Assembly (NCBI GenBank): GCA_041675085.1
Contig: JBAYUN010000005.1
Location: 1-56,060, forward strand
Source: Minisyncoccota bacterium
GTDB lineage: Bacteria; Patescibacteriota; Minisyncoccia; Phycocordibacterales; UBA9973
Direction: 5' to 3'
Length of the DNA stretch: 56,060 nt
Part shown: in pieces, positions 1 through 56,060 of the stretch
Numbering within the stretch: position 1 is the stretch's first letter
How the letters are laid out: each line of letters opens with the position of its first letter
Program-made: the position numbers and the translations under genes
The notes under the pieces: model-generated
Told to the model about the DNA's origin: nothing
The model's database searches: none
Seen by the model: only the letters and a program-made list of their open reading frames with translations

Positions 1-552
<552 letters not shown>

Positions 553-855
553 AAAAGTTAAGAACGAAACAAAATAAAAAACAGCATTTTACAAAATCAT
601 TTTTTATGTGTTCGTTAGAATTTGATCTTTGCTCTAAAAATTATTTAAAAACAAATATCAGAGACTTGCTTCCCGACTGAAAAATCGGGGTTCTCTTTTT
701 TATCAAGCCACAGCGGAACGCTATGACTTGATACACCTATTCACTTGTCAAAGTAAAACGCTCTATCCATAAAGAATAAAGACGTAAAGAGAGTATATAT
801 CATAGATAAATCAAAGTCAACCCCATTTAATATAATCAAAATATATAACTATAAA

Positions 856-3712: not shown

Positions 3713-4696
3713 TTATTTATCACTAATATTATATCTATCCAAAACAGCTTCGAAGATTAACGGAGCTACTATTGTCGCGTCGGATTCTATGACGAACATT
3801 GGCGTATCTTTGGTAAGTTTATCCCAAGTGATTTTCTCATTTGGAGTCGCACCTGAATATGAACCGTATGAAGTAGTCGAATCAGAAATCTGACAGAAAT
3901 ATCCCCAAGGACGAACTTCTTGTTTCAGATCGTATTTAATACTAGGCACTACACATATCGGAAAGTCTCCTGAGATGCCTCCACCTATTTGAAAGAATCC
4001 TAAACCTGGACCATTCTCTGCGAGCTTTGGATACCAGTCGTAAAGTTGAGTCATGTATTCGATACCGCTTTTTACGATACTAGGATCAAGTTCGCCAGCT
4101 TTACAGTATCCCGCAAAAATATTTCCCAAAGTAGAATCTTCCCAACCTGGGACAACTATCGGTAAATTCATTTTAGCAGCTTCCAGTAACCAACAAGCTT
4201 CTGCGTCTCCGTCATGATGAGCGTCAACACTACCGTCTAATAGTATTTGATAAAAATATTCATGAGGGAAATATCTCTCACCTTTTTCTTGTGCTTCCTT
4301 CCACTTTTTAAATATGATAGGTTCGATAACACGAAAAGCTTCTTCTTCTGGGATAGAAGTATCTGTAACTCTTCTCTCACCTTGTTCTAAGATTCTTGAA
4401 TCGTCTTCTTTGGTAAAATATCTGTAGTCTGGATAATCTTTATAATGACTATGAGCTACTAGGCGGAAAACTGATTCTTCCAAGTTTGCCCCAGTGCAAG
4501 AGATAGCGTGAATCTTGCCGTGCTTGATCATAGGAGCTAGAGTTACTCCCATTTGAGCCGAAGACATAGCGCCACCCATAGCGAGCATCATCTTGCCTCC
4601 CTTATCTAAATGCTCTCGATAAGCGATAGTCGCATCCTTCATAGAGCGAGCATTAAAGTTGTGAAATAATTTTTTAAATAAATCTAATGTGTTCAT
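3713..4696 (-). CDS. deoxyhypusine synthase-like / homospermidine synthase-like protein
   Basis: Family-typical blocks GGAMSSAQMG, SCTGANLEES and GGGISGDFPIC over 327 aa. Confidence 0.7.
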   Translation of the reverse strand: MNTLDLFKKLFHNFNARSMKDATIAYREHLDKGGKMMLAMGGAMSSAQMGVTLAPMIKHGKIHAISCTGANLEESVFRLVAHSHYKDYPDYRYFTKEDDSRILEQGERRVTDTSIPEEEAFRVIEPIIFKKWKEAQEKGERYFPHEYFYQILLDGSVDAHHDGDAEACWLLEAAKMNLPIVVPGWEDSTLGNIFAGYCKAGELDPSIVKSGIEYMTQLYDWYPKLAENGPGLGFFQIGGGISGDFPICVVPSIKYDLKQEVRPWGYFCQISDSTTSYGSYSGATPNEKITWDKLTKDTPMFVIESDATIVAPLIFEAVLDRYNISDK

Positions 4697-14884: not shown

Positions 14885-15271
14885 TTAACTTAATAAAATA
14901 GCGTAAATTTTAGGCAAGAAAATGATAGATCCGACAACTATTGCCAATACAACTGCCAATAATACAGCCCCTGCGGCTATGTCTTTGGTATCTCTTGCAT
15001 AAGGATGATATTCGGGACTTGTTAAGTCTATATCTACTTCTATGGCTGTATTTATAGTTTCTGTTATCAAGACTATAAAAATAGCAAAGACTAAAGCTAT
15101 CCATTCGAAATGAGAAATATTTAAAATACAACCCAAATAAAGAGCTAGGATACCAAAAAATATTTGAAGCCAAGCATTGTGAGTGGTTTTTAAAACAATA
15201 CCCAAACCTCTAAAAGCGTGGGTCGCACTTTTGATTCGAGCAACGATACTAAATCTTTTATTTTCTTTCAT
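14885..15271 (-). CDS. dgkA: diacylglycerol / undecaprenol kinase (DgkA family)
   Basis: Three TM helices over 128 aa; AFRGL, ETINTAIE and DIAAGAVL blocks. Confidence 0.85.
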   Translation of the reverse strand: MKENKRFSIVARIKSATHAFRGLGIVLKTTHNAWLQIFFGILALYLGCILNISHFEWIALVFAIFIVLITETINTAIEVDIDLTSPEYHPYARDTKDIAAGAVLLAVVLAIVVGSIIFLPKIYAILLS

Positions 15272-15392
15272 CCCGTTAAATATTTTTAATTAATTTATAA
15301 TTATATTGCAAATTCTTTTACTCTGATTACGTAAATTTATATATGCCCGCTATTTAAAATATTTAACGGGATTCATAAATAAATTATAACAT
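15272..15392 (-). promoter_or_regulatory. conserved uORF leader module, copy 1 (upstream of dgkA)
   Basis: Extended -10 TGTTATAAT (15391-15383), uORF 15376-15350, a 78-nt spacer, then TTAACGGG abutting the dgkA ATG. Same module as at 27961-28099 and 37245-37365. Confidence 0.55.
15350..15376 (-). CDS. 8-codon upstream ORF MNPVKYFK
   Basis: ATG AAT CCC GTT AAA TAT TTT AAA TAG. The ATG lies 6 nt after TATAAT. An identical copy is at 27997-28023 and a frame-preserving variant at 37261-37287. Confidence 0.4.
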   Translation of the reverse strand: MNPVKYFK

Positions 15393-15393
15393 A

Positions 15394-15424
15394 AAAGCCC
15401 CGACGCGTAGCGTCGGGGCTTTTA
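15394..15424. terminator. GC-rich hairpin terminator
   Basis: AAAAGCCCCGACGCGTAGCGTCGGGGCTTTT. Confidence 0.8.
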
Positions 15425-27960: not shown

Positions 27961-28099
27961 TGTATAATAATAGTATTACAAATAAATGAAAATTTTATGA
28001 ATCCCGTTAAATATTTTAAATAGCGTGGTTACATAATATAATGTTATTAGGTCAATAATATTTAATAAAATTAAAAATTAATCAAAAATAATTAACGGG
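27961..28099 (+). promoter_or_regulatory. conserved uORF leader module, copy 2 (upstream of the 2-TM protein and pgl-gnd-zwf)
   Basis: TGTATAAT 27961-27968, uORF 27997-28023, a 76-nt spacer, then TTAACGGG 28092-28099 abutting the ATG at 28100. Confidence 0.55.
27997..28023 (+). CDS. 8-codon upstream ORF MNPVKYFK
   Basis: The 27 nt are identical to the copy at 15376-15350. Confidence 0.4.
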   Translation: MNPVKYFK

Positions 28100-28579
28100 A
28101 TGAAAAATAAATTAAAGATTGTAGGAATGACTAGCGGTATTATAGGATTTGCATTAGTGATAATCGGGATCTGGGCTATGGTTTTTACTTATAGTAACGT
28201 AAGTAGAGAAAATATAATTACTGGAGAGGATGCGTCTATTCCAAACACAAAAGTTGCCGGACCATTAACTCTAAAATCTCAAGCGGACATAATCCGTGAA
28301 CATACACTAAAAATCACACAAGGTAAGACTTATGCAGAAATGCCAAGACAAATACCAAAATTGGATACAGATGGCAAAGAAATTTTAAATGAAAAAGGAG
28401 AAGTAGTATTAGTCGATAACGTGGCTCGTAATACTTGGATAACTGCTACTACGCTCACCACATCTATAAATCTCGCTTTACTGGCATATGGATTATCTCT
28501 ACTAACTATTCTTTTTGGCATATTGTCTATTTCAAACGGCTATATTTTCTGTGAGTTATCTAAGAAAGAAAATAATTAA
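28100..28579 (+). CDS. two-TM membrane protein, function unknown
   Basis: TM helices at both ends with an extracytoplasmic middle (GPLTLKSQADIIREHTL). Confidence 0.55.
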   Translation: MKNKLKIVGMTSGIIGFALVIIGIWAMVFTYSNVSRENIITGEDASIPNTKVAGPLTLKSQADIIREHTLKITQGKTYAEMPRQIPKLDTDGKEILNEKGEVVLVDNVARNTWITATTLTTSINLALLAYGLSLLTILFGILSISNGYIFCELSKKENN

Positions 28580-32675: not shown

Positions 32676-34322
32676 TTATTTCTTAATACAAGCCTTAATA
32701 AAAGCGTTGAATAGTGGATGAGGTTTTAATGGATGAGCTAGGAATTCTGGGTGGAATTGTGCTCCTAGGAAAAACGGATGCACTTCTTTTGGTAATTCTG
32801 CTATTTCCATCAAAATTCCGTCTTTAGATTTACCTGAGAAAACTAATCCTTTCTCTTCTAATTTTTCTATATACAAAGGAGAAACTTCGTATCTATGACG
32901 ATGACGCTCTAGGACTTCTTTGACTCCATAAGCAGATCTAGCGATGGTTCCCTCTTTCAACATGGCTTTATATTCTCCAAGTCTCATAGTCCCTCCATAA
33001 GAATTATTCTTAAGAATTTCTTTTTGAGATTCCATGATATCTATCACGATATTTTTAGAATGTGGATTCACTTCACGAGTATTGGCGTCTTTCAAGCCCA
33101 AGATATTACGAGCGTATTCGATAACTATCATTTGCATACCATAACAAAGTCCAAAATAAGGAATCTTGTTTTCGCGAGCGTATTTTACTACAGCTAATTT
33201 CCCTTCTACACCTCTAGCTCCAAAACCTCCCGGCACAAGTACACCATCATAATTCTTTAGTTCTTTTAATTTGGCAGGATTTTTCTCAAAGTCTACAGCC
33301 GATAACCAAGTCAGTATGGGCTTACGTCCTTCTTTGTATGCAGAATATTTCAAAGCTTCAATAACAGAAAGATATGAATCAGAAAGCACAAAGTCCCCTG
33401 TCTCAAAGTATTTACCTATCACAGCAATCTTTACTACTTCTTTTCCATTGTGAGCATGTTTAGCAAAGTTTTTCCATTTATTCCATAAAGCCGTAGAAGG
33501 TTTGGTATTTTTAATACCTAAAACTTCACAAATTTTTTCTGATAATTTTTCTTTTTCGAAATTTATAGGAATATCATAGATACTATCTACGTCTGGAGCA
33601 GATATTATCCTATCAGCTGGTACACTACAAGACCAAGCTATCTTCTCTTTTCTTTTCTCATCGAGAGACGTATCAGCACGAGCAATAAGAAAATCTGGAG
33701 AAATACCTGAACCGTTTAGCATGCGGACTGCGGTCTGAGTTGGTTTAGTTTTCATCTCACCTACCTTATTTGGAGTTGGTAAATACGAGACCATAACAAA
33801 AGCCACATCACTCATAGCTTGTATTTTCATCATACGAGCAGCTTCCAAGAAAATCATATTTTGATATTCTCCGACTGTTCCTCCTATCTCTATTATGACG
33901 ACGTCGGCGTGAGCGAGTTCTCCTGCATGCTTGATACGTCCGATAACTTCGAGCGGTATATGAGGTACAACTTCAACGCATTTACCTTTGTATTCTAGAT
34001 TACGTTCACGTTCGATAACACTTTGATAAACACGACCAGTAGTCATGTAATTAATACGAGTAAGTTTTGTTTCTAGAAATCTCTCGTAGTTACCCATATC
34101 TTGATCTGTCTCATCTCCATCAGAAAGGACAAAAACCTCACCATGTTCGGTAGGGTTCATTGTGCCGGCATCGACGTTAATATATGGATCAATTTTTAAA
34201 GCTGTGACATTAAGACCTCTGTTCTTGAGAGTGAGCCCAAGAGATGAAGCAGTGATACCTTTTCCTACTCCAGAAATAACTCCTCCTATAACAAAAATAT
34301 ATTTGCGACTCTCTTTTTTCAT
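32676..34322 (-). CDS. pyrG: CTP synthase
   Basis: KYIFVIGGVISGVGKG N-terminus and GLCYGMQ glutamine amidotransferase block. Confidence 0.95.
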   Translation of the reverse strand: MKKESRKYIFVIGGVISGVGKGITASSLGLTLKNRGLNVTALKIDPYINVDAGTMNPTEHGEVFVLSDGDETDQDMGNYERFLETKLTRINYMTTGRVYQSVIERERNLEYKGKCVEVVPHIPLEVIGRIKHAGELAHADVVIIEIGGTVGEYQNMIFLEAARMMKIQAMSDVAFVMVSYLPTPNKVGEMKTKPTQTAVRMLNGSGISPDFLIARADTSLDEKRKEKIAWSCSVPADRIISAPDVDSIYDIPINFEKEKLSEKICEVLGIKNTKPSTALWNKWKNFAKHAHNGKEVVKIAVIGKYFETGDFVLSDSYLSVIEALKYSAYKEGRKPILTWLSAVDFEKNPAKLKELKNYDGVLVPGGFGARGVEGKLAVVKYARENKIPYFGLCYGMQMIVIEYARNILGLKDANTREVNPHSKNIVIDIMESQKEILKNNSYGGTMRLGEYKAMLKEGTIARSAYGVKEVLERHRHRYEVSPLYIEKLEEKGLVFSGKSKDGILMEIAELPKEVHPFFLGAQFHPEFLAHPLKPHPLFNAFIKACIKK

Positions 34323-36334: not shown

Positions 36335-37210
36335 TTAATCTTTTTTCATGAAAATATCCAATTCCCCTTCTAACACATCTTCTATCTGTGAAGTCTCGAC
36401 GTCAGTCCTATGATCTTTGACCATCTTGTACGGATGCATTACATACGAGCGGATTTGATTCCCCCATTCTATACTAGTACCTTTACTTATTTTCATACTT
36501 TCCTCAAAAGTCTTTTTCTCATTTTGAGCTTTTTGGAAAATCTTGGCTCTCAAGATATTCATAGCTCTTTCTCTGTTTGCTTCTTGAGAACGCTCGCCGG
36601 TCGCATGGACCGAGATATTCGTCGGGATATGTATTATCCGCACAGCTGTCTCTCTCTTGTTCACGTTCTGACCACCAGGACCACCAGACTTTGCGAATTC
36701 TACTTTAAGATCAGCAAGAGGTATCTCAAAATCACGCTCATCAAGTTTTGAAAATTTAGGAAGTACTTCGACTAGAGAGAAAGAGGTGTGGCGTAATTTC
36801 TTGGCATTAAATGGAGAGATGCGTACTAATCTATGCACGCCACCTTCATTTTTTAAAAGTCCGTACGCTCGCGGACCTTCAACTTCAAAAGAAATATTAC
36901 GATAGCCGCCGTGCTCATTTTTATTCTCATGAATTAGAAAAATATTCCAACCTTTTTTATTAGCGTATTTCAAGTACATAGAAAATAAAATACTAGAGAA
37001 ATCCTCGGCGTCGTCGCCTCCCGCTCCAGATATGATAGATACTATAGCCGAACCTTTATCCCATTTATTAGACCCTTCGCGTTTGTCTTTCAAGTCTTGT
37101 ATTTCTTTTATGACGCGTTGAGCTTCATTTTTATCAAGCCAAAAGTCAGGCAATAGTATTAAAGCTTCAAGCCTTTCTATTTCTTGGTTTATATTTTCAT
37201 TATCTTCCAT
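36335..37210 (-). CDS. prfB: peptide chain release factor 2 (short form, no frameshift site)
   Basis: SPF motif (RISPFNAKK) and GGQ motif (SGGPGGQNVNK); PDFW near the N-terminus. Only 291 aa. Confidence 0.85.
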   Translation of the reverse strand: MEDNENINQEIERLEALILLPDFWLDKNEAQRVIKEIQDLKDKREGSNKWDKGSAIVSIISGAGGDDAEDFSSILFSMYLKYANKKGWNIFLIHENKNEHGGYRNISFEVEGPRAYGLLKNEGGVHRLVRISPFNAKKLRHTSFSLVEVLPKFSKLDERDFEIPLADLKVEFAKSGGPGGQNVNKRETAVRIIHIPTNISVHATGERSQEANRERAMNILRAKIFQKAQNEKKTFEESMKISKGTSIEWGNQIRSYVMHPYKMVKDHRTDVETSQIEDVLEGELDIFMKKD

Positions 37211-37244: not shown

Positions 37245-37365
37245 TGCTATAATATATATTATGAATCCCGTTAAGTCTTTTAAATAACGGGAATGAGTAA
37301 ATACAAGTAATTAGCAAATAATAACATGTAGTATAATTATCAATTAATCAAAAATATTTAACGGG
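37245..37365 (+). promoter_or_regulatory. conserved uORF leader module, copy 3 (upstream of the VIT1-family gene)
   Basis: TGCTATAAT 37245-37253, uORF 37261-37287, a 78-nt spacer, then TTAACGGG 37358-37365 abutting the ATG at 37366. Confidence 0.55.
37261..37287 (+). CDS. 8-codon upstream ORF MNPVKSFK
   Basis: ATG AAT CCC GTT AAG TCT TTT AAA TAA. The ATG lies 7 nt after TATAAT. Confidence 0.4.
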   Translation: MNPVKSFK

Positions 37366-37875
37366 ATGAAAAAAAGAGTAGCAAAATATATTGGGGATTT
37401 AGTTTATGGAGCAAATGACGGCATTATAACGACTTTCGCTATCGTAGCTGGAGTCGCGGGAGCGAATTTGTCTCCTGCGGTGGTTATCATTTTAGGTATT
37501 TCAAACGTACTCGCTGACGGTTTCTCTATGGCCTCGTCAAACTACCTCGCTCGTAAATCTGAAAAAGATTATCTAGATAATATCGGCAAAGAAGGCGGAG
37601 AAATAAACAATCCACTTAAAAATGCAGTAGTCACCTTTGTCGCGTTTATTCTCGCTGGATCTATCCCCCTCGTACCATACGTATTTGGAGTTAAAGAAAA
37701 TGTATTTAATTATGCTATCTTAGCAACCACAGTAGCATTATTTACCGTCGGGAGTTTAAGAGCGAGAGTCACAGGAATGAATTGGATCAAAGCTGGACTG
37801 GAAATGCTTTTCGTTGGAGCCTTAGCTGCAGGAGTCGCCTACTTTATCGGCCGCGCATTGAGTTATTTAATTTAA
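37366..37875 (+). CDS. VIT1/CCC1-family iron/manganese transporter
   Basis: YGANDGIITTFAIVAGVAGA and LADGFSMA blocks over five TM helices. Confidence 0.8.
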   Translation: MKKRVAKYIGDLVYGANDGIITTFAIVAGVAGANLSPAVVIILGISNVLADGFSMASSNYLARKSEKDYLDNIGKEGGEINNPLKNAVVTFVAFILAGSIPLVPYVFGVKENVFNYAILATTVALFTVGSLRARVTGMNWIKAGLEMLFVGALAAGVAYFIGRALSYLI

Positions 37876-49944: not shown

Positions 49945-50667
49945 ATGGAAAACAACAAAAATTATTTAGTGTTCGGAGCAATCTTAGGATTATCTCTCAT
50001 TATTAGTGCTGGTATAGGAGCTGCGACTTTTTACCAACTACGTTCGACAGACTATATCTCTTCGACTGGTAGTGCTAAAAAACCAGTATTAGCCGACAAG
50101 GTAAAGTGGACTGCAAATTTTAGCCGTCAAACAACTCTATCGACTCTCAAGGCTGGTTATACAAAAATGGATACAGACTTAAAAGAAGTTAAAGCTTTCC
50201 TATTAGCTAACGGTATTGCTGAGACTGCTATCACAATCTCCCCTGTCTATATGAATGAAGTATATGAGCAATACCCAAGTACTGACAAAAAATACACACT
50301 CATGCAAAATATTGAGATTAACGAAACTGATGTAAACAAGATTGATAATCTTTCTAAAAACACTACTCCGTTAATAGTAGATAAAGGAGTATTATTTGCT
50401 ACTAATTCTGTTGAATACTATTATTCTAAATTACCAGAAGCTCGCGTAGAATTACTAGCAAATGCTGTAGCAGATGCTAAGGCTCGCGCTGAACAACTAG
50501 CTATCGCTGGAGGCAAGAAGATCGGAGTATTACAATCTGCTTCAAGTGGTGTAGTGCAAGTCATGTCAGAAAACTCAGTAGAAGTATCTGATTATGGTAT
50601 GTATGATACTTCAAAAATCAATAAAGAAATCATGGTTACGGTCAAAGCTACTTTTGAAATAAAGTAA
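49945..50667 (+). CDS. SIMPL (DUF541) domain protein
   Basis: N-terminal TM helix; AVADAKARAEQLAIAGGKKIGVLQS block. Confidence 0.6.
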   Translation: MENNKNYLVFGAILGLSLIISAGIGAATFYQLRSTDYISSTGSAKKPVLADKVKWTANFSRQTTLSTLKAGYTKMDTDLKEVKAFLLANGIAETAITISPVYMNEVYEQYPSTDKKYTLMQNIEINETDVNKIDNLSKNTTPLIVDKGVLFATNSVEYYYSKLPEARVELLANAVADAKARAEQLAIAGGKKIGVLQSASSGVVQVMSENSVEVSDYGMYDTSKINKEIMVTVKATFEIK

Positions 50668-54909: not shown

Positions 54910-55021
<112 letters not shown>

Positions 55022-55171
55022 TGAAAACTCGATTAGAAGAATTTTTACAAAATTTTTTAAAACTTCGCCCTCGGAGTCATAAAGACAGGGGACCCACGTT
55101 TTTTAAAATTTTATAAAAATTCTTTTTAATTTAAAGTCTTGCGACTAATATATAACAAATATATTTTGTGG

Positions 55172-56060
55172 TTTACAAATTTCTTAACAGGAATCGAAAC
55201 ATTAGTACTTCTCAGCTAATACATTACTGTATTTACACTTAAAGCCTATCAACCTGATCATCTCTCAGGGTTCTAATAACGATTCCTAATCTTGAAGCTG
55301 GCTTCCCTCTTAGATGCTTTCAGAGGTTATCCATTCCCGACATAGCTACCGAGCAGTCCAGTTGGCACTAGAGCTCGTACACCAGAGGTCAGTTCACCCC
55401 GGTCCTCTCGTACTAGGGGCAAATCTTCTCAAGAATCAACGAGTGCAGTAGATAGGAGACCAACCTGTCTCACGCAAAATGTTTTATATCAAACTCTCAT
55501 CTACAAGAGCAGAACCTTTATTACTAAAGGGATCGGACTGTGACTTTAACTTACAAAATAAGTTATCTAACATTCAGTCTCTACGGGCATCTCTTAAAGA
55601 GAATTCCCTCGGCGTTATCCTTTGTTTTCACAAATAGGATTTCTCCGATATAAGTTAGCTTCTCGTATTGTATTACTACAATACGCCGCCGTGATGTGTA
55701 TTTTTCAACACATGGTTGTTTTCAGTTTTATATGAGCACTTACGTCTCATATATTTTCTTCGCTCGGACATTATAAAAATAAATTTTTATATGCTCCTCG
55801 CTTGAAAATATAACAGTTCTAATTCATATTCGAATTTGTCTTCCTCGCGGGATTCAGACTGTGAAAAACGCAAAACGCATATCATGCAACTTGTAACAAA
55901 AAGTTATAAGTTTTGATTTATACGCTATACGACCTTCACGGTCTGAACCCAGCTCGCGTACCTTTTTAATTGGCGAACAGCCAAACGCTTGGCAGCTTCT
56001 CCACCGCCGCGCTAAGGTGAGCCGACATCGAGGTGCCGAACTCCGCCGTCGATATGAACT
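55172..56060 (-). rRNA. rrl: 23S rRNA, 3' portion (partial, continues past the right edge), interrupted by an intron
   Basis: The reverse complement contains GGTTCAGACCGT...CGTGAGACAGGTTGGTCTCCTATC, the sarcin-ricin region CTAGTACGAGAGGACCGG and the 3' end AGTACTAATG. Confidence 0.9.
55475..55937 (-). ncRNA. group-I-like intron in 23S rRNA domain V (no ORF)
   Basis: 463 nt split the conserved ...GACCGU | CGUGAGACAG... The 5' exon ends in U and the insert ends in G. R/S-like core GUAGAGACUGAA ... CACAGUCCG gives P7 GACUG/CAGUC. Several GUAA-capped hairpins. Confidence 0.6.

Follow-up and report, generated by a model that had tools for sequence, protein, structure and literature searches.

The module in front of the dgkA gene, located in a window of 56,060 nt (the whole stretch of DNA analyzed) from a Minisyncoccota bacterium, is very probably a non-autonomous, palindromic, MITE-like element that was inserted into a start codon and is accommodated by the translational route described below; the same holds for two further copies in the window. 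The element is approximately 101 bp long and has terminal inverted repeats (TIRs) of 13–17 bp; its insertion point is exactly the start codon of dgkA, where ATGAA was duplicated. The 5' ATGAA is the original dgkA start, still positioned behind its native leaderless promoter (TGTTATAAT-N6), and the recreated 3' ATGAA is the working start. The original codon and the left terminal repeat together open an incidental short frame, MNPVKYFK*. The family is multicopy, polymorphic among close relatives, and unlinked to gene function.

The three modules, of approximately 105 nt, share a uORF, a spacer, and a junction in which TTAACGGG directly precedes the main ATG, and all the features that a sequence-only reading of this DNA had described in them were present. 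The uORF ATGAATCCCGTTAAATATTTTAAATAG occurs at 15376–15350 (minus strand) and at 27997–28023, and its variant ATGAATCCCGTTAAGTCTTTTAAATAA at 37261–37287. The spacers in copies 1, 2, and 3 are 78, 76, and 78 nt long, respectively, and the main ATGs are at 15271, 28100, and 37366. The mean identity of the aligned modules is 79%, with homology from TTATGAATCCCG to CGGGATGAAA. The number of 10-mer matches was not significant by itself (6 against 3.1 expected, with one mismatch allowed), and the significance of the modules derives instead from their similarity over the whole length. A family profile matched copies 1–3 at E = 5e-20, 2e-17, and 6e-21 and nothing else in the window. The genes located 3' of the modules encode DgkA (PF01219), a 159-aa membrane protein without a family assignment (28100–28579, plus strand), and VIT1 (PF01988; 37366–37875, plus strand). 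All three copies carry an ATGAA direct repeat at both ends, which the sequence-only reading had missed. Copy 2 thus spans 27997–28104 (plus strand), with the element at 28002–28100 between the two repeats, and copy 3 spans 37261–37370 (plus strand), with the element at 37266–37366.

In copy 1, the element proper (TCCCGTTAAAT...ATTTAACGGGA, 101 nt; 15271–15371, minus strand) lies in the dgkA start codon. The 5' target copy (15372–15376, minus strand) opens the 8-codon uORF, and the 3' target copy (15267–15271, minus strand) is the present start of dgkA (CDS 14885–15271). The native extended −10 element TGTTATAAT (15383–15391, minus strand) is located 6 nt before the 5' ATG in a leaderless arrangement, and the terminator of the upstream SnoaL-like gene (15392–15424) precedes this promoter. 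In copy 3, the native −10 element TGCTATAAT (37245–37253, plus strand) lies 7 nt ahead of the uORF ATG. The proposal that the 5' AUG sits at a leaderless or native initiation signal is thus supported. Such signals are common in the window, where a −10 element was found 5–8 nt before the ATG in 22 of 52 genes and Shine–Dalgarno (SD)-like motifs in only one.

The comparison of orthologous sites revealed that start codons may be filled or empty. No element interrupts the dgkA start in orthologues with identities of 94% (L160/L161), 85% (L162/L163), and 77% (L166), which speaks against a dedicated regulatory leader. The junction between the filled and empty states was read from the raw sequences: the empty orthologues read TGTTATAAT-N6-ATGAAAGAAAAT, the empty site itself being TGTTATAATTTACCC|ATGAAAGAAAAT, and they have the same terminator and the same promoter directly before ATGAAAGAA. 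The dgkA gene of L018 carries an element from a subfamily different from that of the window copy, indicating recurrent insertion at dgkA. Five further filled/empty pairs were found between the window and the related MAG CAYNAO01. The copy 2 site, filled in the window, is empty in the orthologue L014:4159 (...TTTTTAAATTT/ATGAAAAAAC), and the VIT1 site of copy 3 is also filled in L003. Conversely, several sites are empty in the window and filled elsewhere: 49945–49949 (plus strand; GATATAATATATAG/ATGGAAAAC), filled in the L017 orthologue of CAYNAO01 with ATGGA flanks; 4692–4696 (minus strand; …ATTTAACCGT/ATGAACACA), filled in L023; 27726–27730 (minus strand; …TAAGATATACAG/ATGAAACAG), in a yceG-like gene, filled in L014:3908; and 34318–34322 (minus strand; …AAGTAAATTT/ATGAAAAAAG), in pyrG, filled in L014:6440. 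Multiple copies with presence/absence polymorphism at orthologous sites are characteristic of MITEs.

The flanks of the elements also bear the mark of insertion. Among 34 copies from Patescibacteria, found with a pattern that left the flanks unspecified, ATGAA/ATGAA occurred in 23 and ATGGA/ATGGA in 9, with zero A/G discordance (Fisher p = 3.6e-8). Which base occupies the variable flank position does not depend on the internal subfamily (L017 versus L018, L016 versus L019). The two bases after the ATG agreed at both ends in 77 of 90 metagenome copies, the matching ATGNN dinucleotides being AA, GA, AG, AT, TA, CA, and CG, and a class with a 4-nt target duplication was also present. As in MITEs, the target-site duplication varies with the insertion site. 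The "conserved 8-codon uORF" of the sequence-only reading is therefore the original (duplicated) start codon read on into the left terminal repeat; its stop is not conserved, and its length in the family ranges from 6 to 34 codons.

At least 24 copies were present in a single MAG, among others at the starts of the genes for DnaK, RNase H, Xth, RpiB, and PyrG. All 34 Patescibacteria copies adjoin an ORF, and these ORFs (71–922 aa) have unrelated functions. Genes behind copies of the element encode DnaK, RNase H, exonuclease III (Xth), RpiB, HIT, PyrG, GlyRS, and the ribosomal proteins L15 and L36; specificity for membrane proteins was rejected, and the idea of a leader dedicated to membrane-protein genes is not supported. 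The occurrence of 34 of 34 copies at start codons has a probability of approximately 1e-8, given 25 ATGRA starts against approximately 18 non-coding ATGRA sites per 56 kb. For the sequence-only reading, a scatter of copies bearing no fixed relation to start codons would have been the sign of a MITE. This assumption proved wrong, since the present MITE-like element keeps such a relation. A restriction to start codons beyond a target preference of 4–5 bp must involve selection or a further targeting mechanism. The elements are 67–160 nt long and contain no frames other than short uORFs, so that, like MITEs, they have no capacity to encode a transposase. In the window family, the orientation relative to the gene is uniform, with A exceeding T on the sense strand in 36 of 36 copies. 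The right-hand 25–35 nt are almost invariant in this family, whereas the inner left arm is variable. The right subterminal region, which is A/U-rich and directly 5' of the main ATG in copy 1 (AATTATAAATTAATTAAAAATATTTAACGGG; 15272–15302, minus strand), shows the highest conservation within the family and is turned toward the gene in every case.

The window family is a branch of a larger superfamily, ATGNN-TCCCGTTA(G/A)A…T(C/T)TAACGGG-ATGNN. Elements with the signature ATGNN-TCCCGTTAGA…TCTAACGGG-ATGNN abound in metagenomes, where they occupy start codons of essential genes, although the metagenome sample cannot itself demonstrate exclusivity for start codons because the search pattern demanded an ATG at the 3' junction. 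The superfamily occupies start codons in Patescibacteria and in at least one Omnitrophota MAG, and its host genes include those for ribosomal proteins, aminoacyl-tRNA synthetases, SecY, and DnaK. The interiors are unrelated to one another (124 clusters among 126 copies). Loss of the uORF with retention of the boxes had been named as an outcome that would favor a DNA operator; the 5' start is indeed lost in 23 of 126 superfamily copies (~18%), with the boxes and gene retained, whereas 33 of the 34 members of the window family keep the 5' AUG. A scan of viral contigs returned mostly chance matches, with approximately 3–5 real copies, and no phage-borne enzyme was evident in it.

The complementarity between the uORF and the start-codon region proved to be real, and it extends over 17 nt rather than the 10 originally noted. 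In copy 1, the left arm ATCCCGTTAAATATTTT (15356–15372, minus strand) and the right arm AAAATATTTAACGGGAT (15270–15286, minus strand), which includes the AU of the main AUG, are perfectly complementary, and copies 2 and 3 contain one and two mismatches, respectively. This pairing dominates the predicted fold (MFE of −21 to −24 kcal/mol, z = −3.5 to −4.4). TIRs, another feature of MITEs, measure 17 bp in the window family and 13 bp in 126 of 126 metagenome copies. Stem pairs 1–10 were fixed by the search pattern, but pairs 11–13 included all four Watson–Crick types and were 90–96% paired, after which pairing dropped to 47% at position 14. When nt 1–30 were held open, the predicted probability of the main initiation region being unpaired rose from 0.21–0.29 to 0.51–0.74, in agreement with the earlier proposal that the two boxes can pair and control access to the main AUG. 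The left arm also takes part in a local hairpin of box 1 and box 2 (predicted −7.6 kcal/mol); in copy 1, box 2 (TAGCGGG; 15346–15352, minus strand) contains the uORF stop and can pair with the CCCGTTA of the left arm. The box 1:box 2 cells were 89.7% paired, and 13 of 13 one-sided changes were G·U or U·G. The long-range helix and the local hairpin are thus alternative pairings with the structural potential to mask or unmask the start. Covariation in the window family was weak (2 compensated and 16 uncompensated cells at arm positions 11–13), which is partly attributable to the fixing of the outer 10 bp by the search pattern. The terminal stem, with too few mismatches, showed no bias toward G·U over A·C of the kind expected from selection at the RNA level. 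Masking of the start codon by the hairpin, relieved by translation of the uORF, is a plausible consequence for expression according to these predictions.

These structural features are also what would be expected of a dedicated cis-regulatory leader, that is, a uORF-controlled RNA switch or attenuator for particular membrane-protein genes. The stable long-range helix covering the AU of the main AUG, the competing hairpin preserved through G·U changes, the near-universal retention of the 5' AUG in the family, and the strongly conserved right end are all compatible with such a leader. Nevertheless, we consider it unlikely, because the module is present or absent between near-identical orthologues together with its target duplication, the host genes have unrelated functions and include many cytoplasmic housekeeping genes, the uORF varies in length and stop, and the interiors diverge freely with no conserved core resembling a ligand-binding site and no Rfam match. 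A regulatory role may have been acquired secondarily by some copies.

A strong indication of how the elements are tolerated came from the reading frame in the superfamily. The uORF frame was open across the whole element in 51 of 90 copies (57%), compared with approximately 15% expected from shuffled interiors and 18–23% in the reverse frames (p < 1e-11), and these counts are independent observations because the interiors are unrelated. Openness fell to 6 of 23 in copies without the 5' start (p = 0.008). The frames ended in 30 cases at a UAA located 7 nt ahead of the recreated AUG and in 18 cases at an AUGA overlap, and in-frame fusions accounted for 7 (of 103 superfamily copies). Stops at UAA(−7) or at the AUGA overlap indicate, as far as can be judged from sequence, probable translational coupling, and the open frames are strong evidence that the uORF is translated in the wider superfamily. 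The proposal that the uORF is translated is thus supported for the relatives; in the window family itself, the frame closes early (at codon 9 in most copies), and the evidence for read-through is not directly transferable to it because it comes from those relatives. The same observations bear on an RNA-level explanation, in which RNase III or another nuclease cuts the helix, or splicing removes the element, leaving an mRNA that begins at the recreated AUG. The sharply delimited 13-bp terminal helix, conserved in sequence in 126 of 126 copies, the use of leaderless mRNAs by the host, and the documented cleavage of Correia TIRs by RNase III (PMC10969869) speak for it. However, cleavage or excision would not select open frames or stops at −7/+1 of the main AUG, and 13 bp is short for RNase III, making this explanation quite unlikely; a ribozyme is ruled out because the interior is unconserved.

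It is very unlikely, in turn, that an outward-facing promoter in the element re-drives the gene, with the uORF and hairpin irrelevant. Correia elements and many IS ends carry outward promoters. Here, the conserved right subterminal region always faces the gene and is AT-rich, with TATAAA and TAAATT hexamers 21–28 nt before the ATG. However, no native-like promoter was found inside the element: with the native TGnTATAAT weight matrix, no position in the right half scored above 0, and scores at leaderless spacing were −8 to −17, and a two-hexamer scan detected no promoter common to the three window copies. The GC-richer relatives have an SD motif and no promoter at the right end, and the open frames would be left unexplained. 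An SD motif supplied by the element was rejected as a general feature, since it occurred in just 20 of 126 copies and was equally frequent in native flanks. A pair of DNA operator half-sites, or a recombinase site, recognized by a DNA-binding protein with control over these promoters was likewise considered. The 10-bp palindromic core (TCCCGTTARA), conserved across phyla, points to recognition by a protein, and GTTAGA/TCTAAC resembles integron core sites. However, the boxes lie 3' of the promoter and approximately 85 bp apart, their polarity relative to the loop is opposite to that of attC, and the target duplication and empty sites show insertion rather than evolution in place. We regard this explanation as extremely unlikely; a protein that recognizes the core is more likely to be a mobilizing enzyme than an operator-binding regulator.

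In our model of a start-codon insertion, transcription would still begin at the native promoter, and ribosomes recruited to the original AUG would continue translation into the left arm, thereby melting the terminal hairpin that otherwise masks the recreated AUG. As a precedent for such recruitment, AUGs at the 5' terminus are bound by 70S ribosomes, and they can influence the cistron that follows (PMC4965119). The unstructured, conserved A/U-rich right end would then act as an initiation region that requires no SD motif. In the larger superfamily, the frame that begins at the original AUG would remain open through the whole element and end at the UAA of UCUAACGGGAUG, end at the AUGA overlap, or run into the gene, resulting in termination–reinitiation or an N-terminal extension. 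A search for an autonomous element, which covered multicopy ORFs, long-range end pairs with matching flanks, and solo arms, found no autonomous partner, multicopy protein, transposase, or long element with matching ends in approximately 1.06 Mb of loci. We tentatively propose that elements from CPR/Patescibacteria to Omnitrophota are selfish hairpins specific to start codons, transparent to translation, and moved by an enzyme that recognizes the 13-bp hairpin and an (A/G)TG-type target. With similar reserve, the element could be likened to a "translational intron" at gene starts, its stop being positioned at −7 or +1 relative to the regenerated AUG.

The apparent riboswitch-like leader is therefore recast as a mobile element that has the start codon for its niche, although insertions are not normally expected to be tolerated there. 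If this is correct, selfish DNA has a new way to limit the harm to its host, by translational coupling rather than by splicing or in-frame translation. In CPR genomes, gene callers will misplace starts or predict spurious MNPV(K/R) peptides. The element also provides a natural and portable means of linking the translation of a downstream cistron to initiation at an upstream site. An enzymological question arises as well, namely what recognizes TCCCGTTAGA hairpins and ATG targets; to our knowledge, almost no transposases are known from CPR genomes. Filled and empty start codons also serve as fine-scale strain markers for uncultivated lineages.

We found no description of such a family of start-codon elements in the literature, and searches of the window and of 12 loci yielded no Rfam family at its gathering score, with sub-threshold matches at chance level; the module therefore corresponds to no curated cis-regulatory RNA model. 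Compared with leader-peptide switches, the alternative pairings are present, but the conserved start, frame, and stop of the uORF and vertical inheritance are not. The attC sites contain RYYYAAC … GTTRRRY in that 5'-to-3' order at the 3' ends of cassettes, whereas here GTTAGA precedes TCTAAC, the opposite order, and the elements sit at the 5' start codons of ordinary genes. The IS200/IS605-derived PATEs lack a target duplication, have a subterminal hairpin at each end, and insert 3' of a fixed tetra- or pentanucleotide; the present elements have flanks that vary with the site and form a single end-to-end hairpin. The mycobacterial interspersed repetitive units (MIRU), reported by Supply et al. 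in 1997, are intergenic repeats with small ORFs whose stops and starts overlap the flanking cistrons, so that translational coupling is kept. They differ from the present elements in being direct tandem repeats in operon spacers, and they are not known to have a hairpin, TIRs, or duplication of a start codon. Bypass elements, such as the T4 gene 60 gap and the mitochondrial "byps" of Magnusiomyces, are mobile non-coding inserts that contain a stem–loop, lie between matching codons, and are tolerated by way of a translational device. Bypassing requires matched take-off and landing codons inside an ORF, with the peptidyl-tRNA sliding from one to the other, whereas here the start codon is repeated and the insert is translated, with a stop at its end.

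The remaining systems also share features with the present elements. The Rickettsia palindromic elements (RPEs) are likewise palindromic selfish DNA tolerated while translatable, and in a reduced genome they have been inserted in frame into housekeeping genes unrelated to one another. However, RPEs lie inside ORFs and are translated within the protein, whereas the present elements lie at the initiation codon, the window copies contain in-frame stops, and most superfamily frames stop near the recreated AUG. In the erm and cat leaders and with 5'-terminal uAUGs, a short upstream frame also remodels a helix that masks a downstream start (PMC4965119). Those leaders are gene-specific, vertically inherited, and responsive to signals, whereas the present module is found on dozens of unrelated genes, and its peptide is merely a translated terminal repeat. 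The Correia elements (CREE) of Neisseria are approximately 100–150 bp long, with TIRs, a short target duplication, many gene-adjacent copies, and strain-level presence/absence, and they are co-transcribed, their TIRs forming an RNA helix (PMC10969869); the term "start codon" does not occur in this 2024 review. The likeness to the present elements thus covers size, TIRs, target duplication, copy number, and polymorphism. On the other hand, CREE duplicate TA, lie at variable distances from genes, and exert their effects via promoters of their own, IHF sites, and cleavage by RNase III, whereas the present elements duplicate the start codon itself (ATGNN), adjoin the ORF in all copies, and show selection for an open frame across their length.

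The three modules of the window, whose sequence details all agreed with the sequence-only reading, lie at the starts of dgkA (15271, minus strand; copy 1), a 159-aa protein gene (28100, plus strand; copy 2), and VIT1 (37366, plus strand; copy 3); the downstream genes thus encode DgkA (PF01219), a protein without a family assignment, and VIT1 (PF01988). When aligned, the modules showed a mean identity of 79%, and their homology extended from TTATGAATCCCG to CGGGATGAAA, with unrelated flanking DNA. The family profile matched the 56-kb window exactly three times, at these copies (E = 6e-21 to 2e-17). The complementary boxes described in that reading are real but are 17 nt long rather than 10 nt (ATCCCGTTAAATATTTT / AAAATATTTAACGGGAT), and the helix that they form closes the predicted fold (-21 to -24 kcal/mol, z about -4). 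A direct repeat, ATGAA, which had gone unmentioned, was present at both ends of each module. Divergent from copy 3, at a distance of 50 nt, is a release-factor-like gene (PCRF and RF-1 domains; 36335-37210, minus strand) of only 291 aa, which lacks the N-terminal region of the Pfam profile. The window also carries the 5' part of a 16S gene (1-553, minus strand) and 23S-5S genes (54912-56060, minus strand), which are about 54 kb apart and therefore unlinked; the 23S fragment occupies 880 nt for 429 model positions, which implies an insertion of about 450 nt (intron or intervening sequence).

When 185,579 species genomes were scanned with a pattern of only two 10-mers and a 65-95-nt gap, 39 loci were recovered. 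By the labels of the MAG submitters, about 28 were in Candidatus Saccharibacteria, and the single related MAG CAYNAO01 contained at least 24 copies; other labelled carriers were an Omnitrophica MAG (gltX, repeat ATGAG) and a Planctomycetaceae-labelled contig (rpoN), and the DgkA relatives were labelled Pacebacteria, Nomurabacteria, or Patescibacteria. All of these copies began with ATG-R-A before TCCCG and ended with CGGG before ATG-R-A. The base R was concordant between the ends (23 A/A, 9 G/G, 0 discordant; p = 3.6e-8) and independent of the internal subfamily, and therefore derives from the target. The duplication length is ambiguous (4 or 5 bp) because the terminal base pair overlaps the duplication. 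In each copy, the right-hand ATG opened a real ORF of 71-922 aa. Membrane-protein genes were among the hosts, but so were DnaK, RNase H, exonuclease III, RpiB, HIT, pyrG, GlyRS, L15, and L36, so the proposed leader of membrane-protein genes was not upheld. The uORF arises where reading from the original start codon continues into the left terminal repeat; its stop is not conserved, and its length ranges from 6 to 34 codons. In orthologous copies upstream of rplO in GC-richer Saccharimonadales (L015:1442-1555 and L031:591-704), an SD precedes the left ATG, the uORF has 34 codons, and its stop is the UAA located 7 nt ahead of the L15 start; the two copies differ by a compensatory change in an internal hairpin (CAACC/GGTTG vs CAGCC/GGCTG). 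An ATCCCGT core was also common to arrays of ATCCCGT(T/C)(A/G)A units in a Clostridiales MAG (L030), to a repeated GGAAGGAATCCCGTTAATAATAAAAATA in Omnitrophota (L007), and to a 13-bp inverted repeat around a tRNA gene (L036).

Presence and absence varied between related genomes. Four window starts (49945, 4696, 27730, and 34322) were empty and their CAYNAO01 orthologues filled, and copy 2 was missing from its CAYNAO01 orthologue. In dgkA orthologues of 94%, 85%, and 77% identity, the order terminator, TGTTATAAT, N6, ATGAAAGAAAAT represents the empty site, and the window represents the filled one: terminator, TGTTATAAT, N6, ATGAA, 101 nt, ATGAAAGAAAAT. The CAYNAO01 dgkA (72% identical) was filled by a different subfamily, and the dgkA start codon was therefore hit more than once. 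Start annotation near these leaderless DgkA-homologue genes is unreliable: several database entries (P0003, P0005, P0011, and P0020) are 131-148 aa long vs 128 aa in the window, and P0003 (139 aa), from a locus without the element, was called from an over-extended start that precedes the true ATG. Five defining features of a MITE were observed: the element is small, ends in inverted repeats, duplicates its target, occurs in many copies, and is polymorphic for presence and absence. These would place the element in the broad MITE class only; for the sixth feature, an autonomous partner, 1.06 Mb of loci gave no candidate.

Of the 356 ATGRA sites in the window, 25 coincide with gene starts and about 18 fall in neither coding sequence nor RNA genes. 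If avoidance of coding sequence were the sole filter, the location of 34/34 copies at starts would have p about 1e-8. Some insertions were at leaderless starts, with TGnTATAAT at -15 to -7, and others were at starts that follow an SD or lie inside an operon (dnaK, rplO, rpmJ, pyrG, and copy 2); recognition or selection therefore acts on the start codon and not on the promoter. Two tandem elements on one start codon (L114:4818-5022 and L134 near 2400) are expected if the recreated ATGNN itself serves as a target.

In metagenomes, the pattern TCCCGTTARA-N56-86-TYTAACGGGATG, a sample conditioned on the 3' ATG, revealed a wider superfamily of at least 126 non-redundant copies with unrelated interiors (124 clusters). 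Among the matches listed, the left end was ATGNN in 82/126, a GTG or TTG start in 8/126, and a lost start in 23/126; NN was equal at both ends in 77/90 (AA, GA, AG, AT, TA, CA, and CG), and 13/126 had a 4-nt repeat. An ORF followed 113/126 of the matches listed, including L36, L22, L24, L2, L35, L9, SSB, EF-Ts, IF-3, SecY, TopA, ValRS, TrpRS, GAPDH, and HPF. Pairs 1-10 of the terminal helix were set by the search pattern; among the matches listed, pairs 11-13 included all four Watson-Crick types and were 90-96% paired, and pairing dropped to 47% at position 14 and reached background further in, a sharp edge. A sister type with C·G terminal pairs (CCCCGTTAGA…TCTAACGGGG; L071:10593-10699, L124:3525-3589, L141:1266-1331, and L186:3246-3323) had GTAAA repeats just upstream of a GGAGG Shine-Dalgarno or itself sat on a GTG start. 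In both types, the repeat begins with A where the terminal pair is T·A and with G where it is C·G, which suggests sequence-directed target choice.

Among the superfamily matches listed, the left-ATG frame ran through the entire element without a stop in 51/90 copies, vs 15% of shuffled interiors and 18-23% of reverse-strand frames (p < 1e-11). The UAA within UCUAACGGGAUG, which lies 7 nt ahead of the new AUG, ended this frame in 30 copies listed (25/30 where the register permits); the frame ended at an AUGA overlap in 18 and continued in frame into the gene in 7; where the left start was lost, openness fell to 6/23 (p = 0.008). Judged by sequence, the open frames, their placed ends, and this drop are the signature of translation through the element with termination-reinitiation, and the open frame is the strongest functional signal. 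A general supply of SDs by the element was not found, with only 20/126 among the matches listed, a rate equal to that of native flanks; in some metagenome copies, GGAGG was paired with CCUC in the stem.

In the window family, the AT-rich variant, the frame closes early: some two-thirds of the aligned copies have their stop at codon 9. Its right 25-35 nt are nearly invariant, its inner left arm varies with mostly uncompensated changes, and its orientation relative to the gene was uniform (36/36 copies). An SD-like motif preceded 1/52 window genes, and a TAnnnT hexamer (leaderless-type promoter) lay 5-8 nt from the ATG in 22/52; this genome has next to no SDs and is for the most part leaderless. 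Promoter scans of the window copies found no native-like promoter inside the element. The left arm and box 2 (in copy 1 TAGCGGG, which includes the uORF stop) can form a local hairpin, which was kept by G.U changes only, and when nt 1-30 were held open, accessibility of the main initiation region roughly doubled. From right-end conservation, orientation, the SD-less host, the promoter scans, the hairpin, and accessibility, we infer that translation from the original AUG would unmask the SD-less initiation region. As a precedent, binding of 70S ribosomes to 5'-terminal AUGs, with an influence on the cistron downstream, is documented (PMC4965119).

An Rfam search gave no match, in agreement with the earlier view that this is no named leader family, and no description of such an element was found in the literature searched; a 2024 review of prokaryotic MITEs nowhere mentions start codons (PMC10969869). 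The observation made in the sequence-only reading stands, and its interpretation as a regulatory leader is supported in part only. Although the element is not a member of the Correia-type MITEs, the Rickettsia palindromic elements, the MIRUs, or the leader-peptide switches, these are among the nearest known systems, and it has part of its behaviour in common with each.
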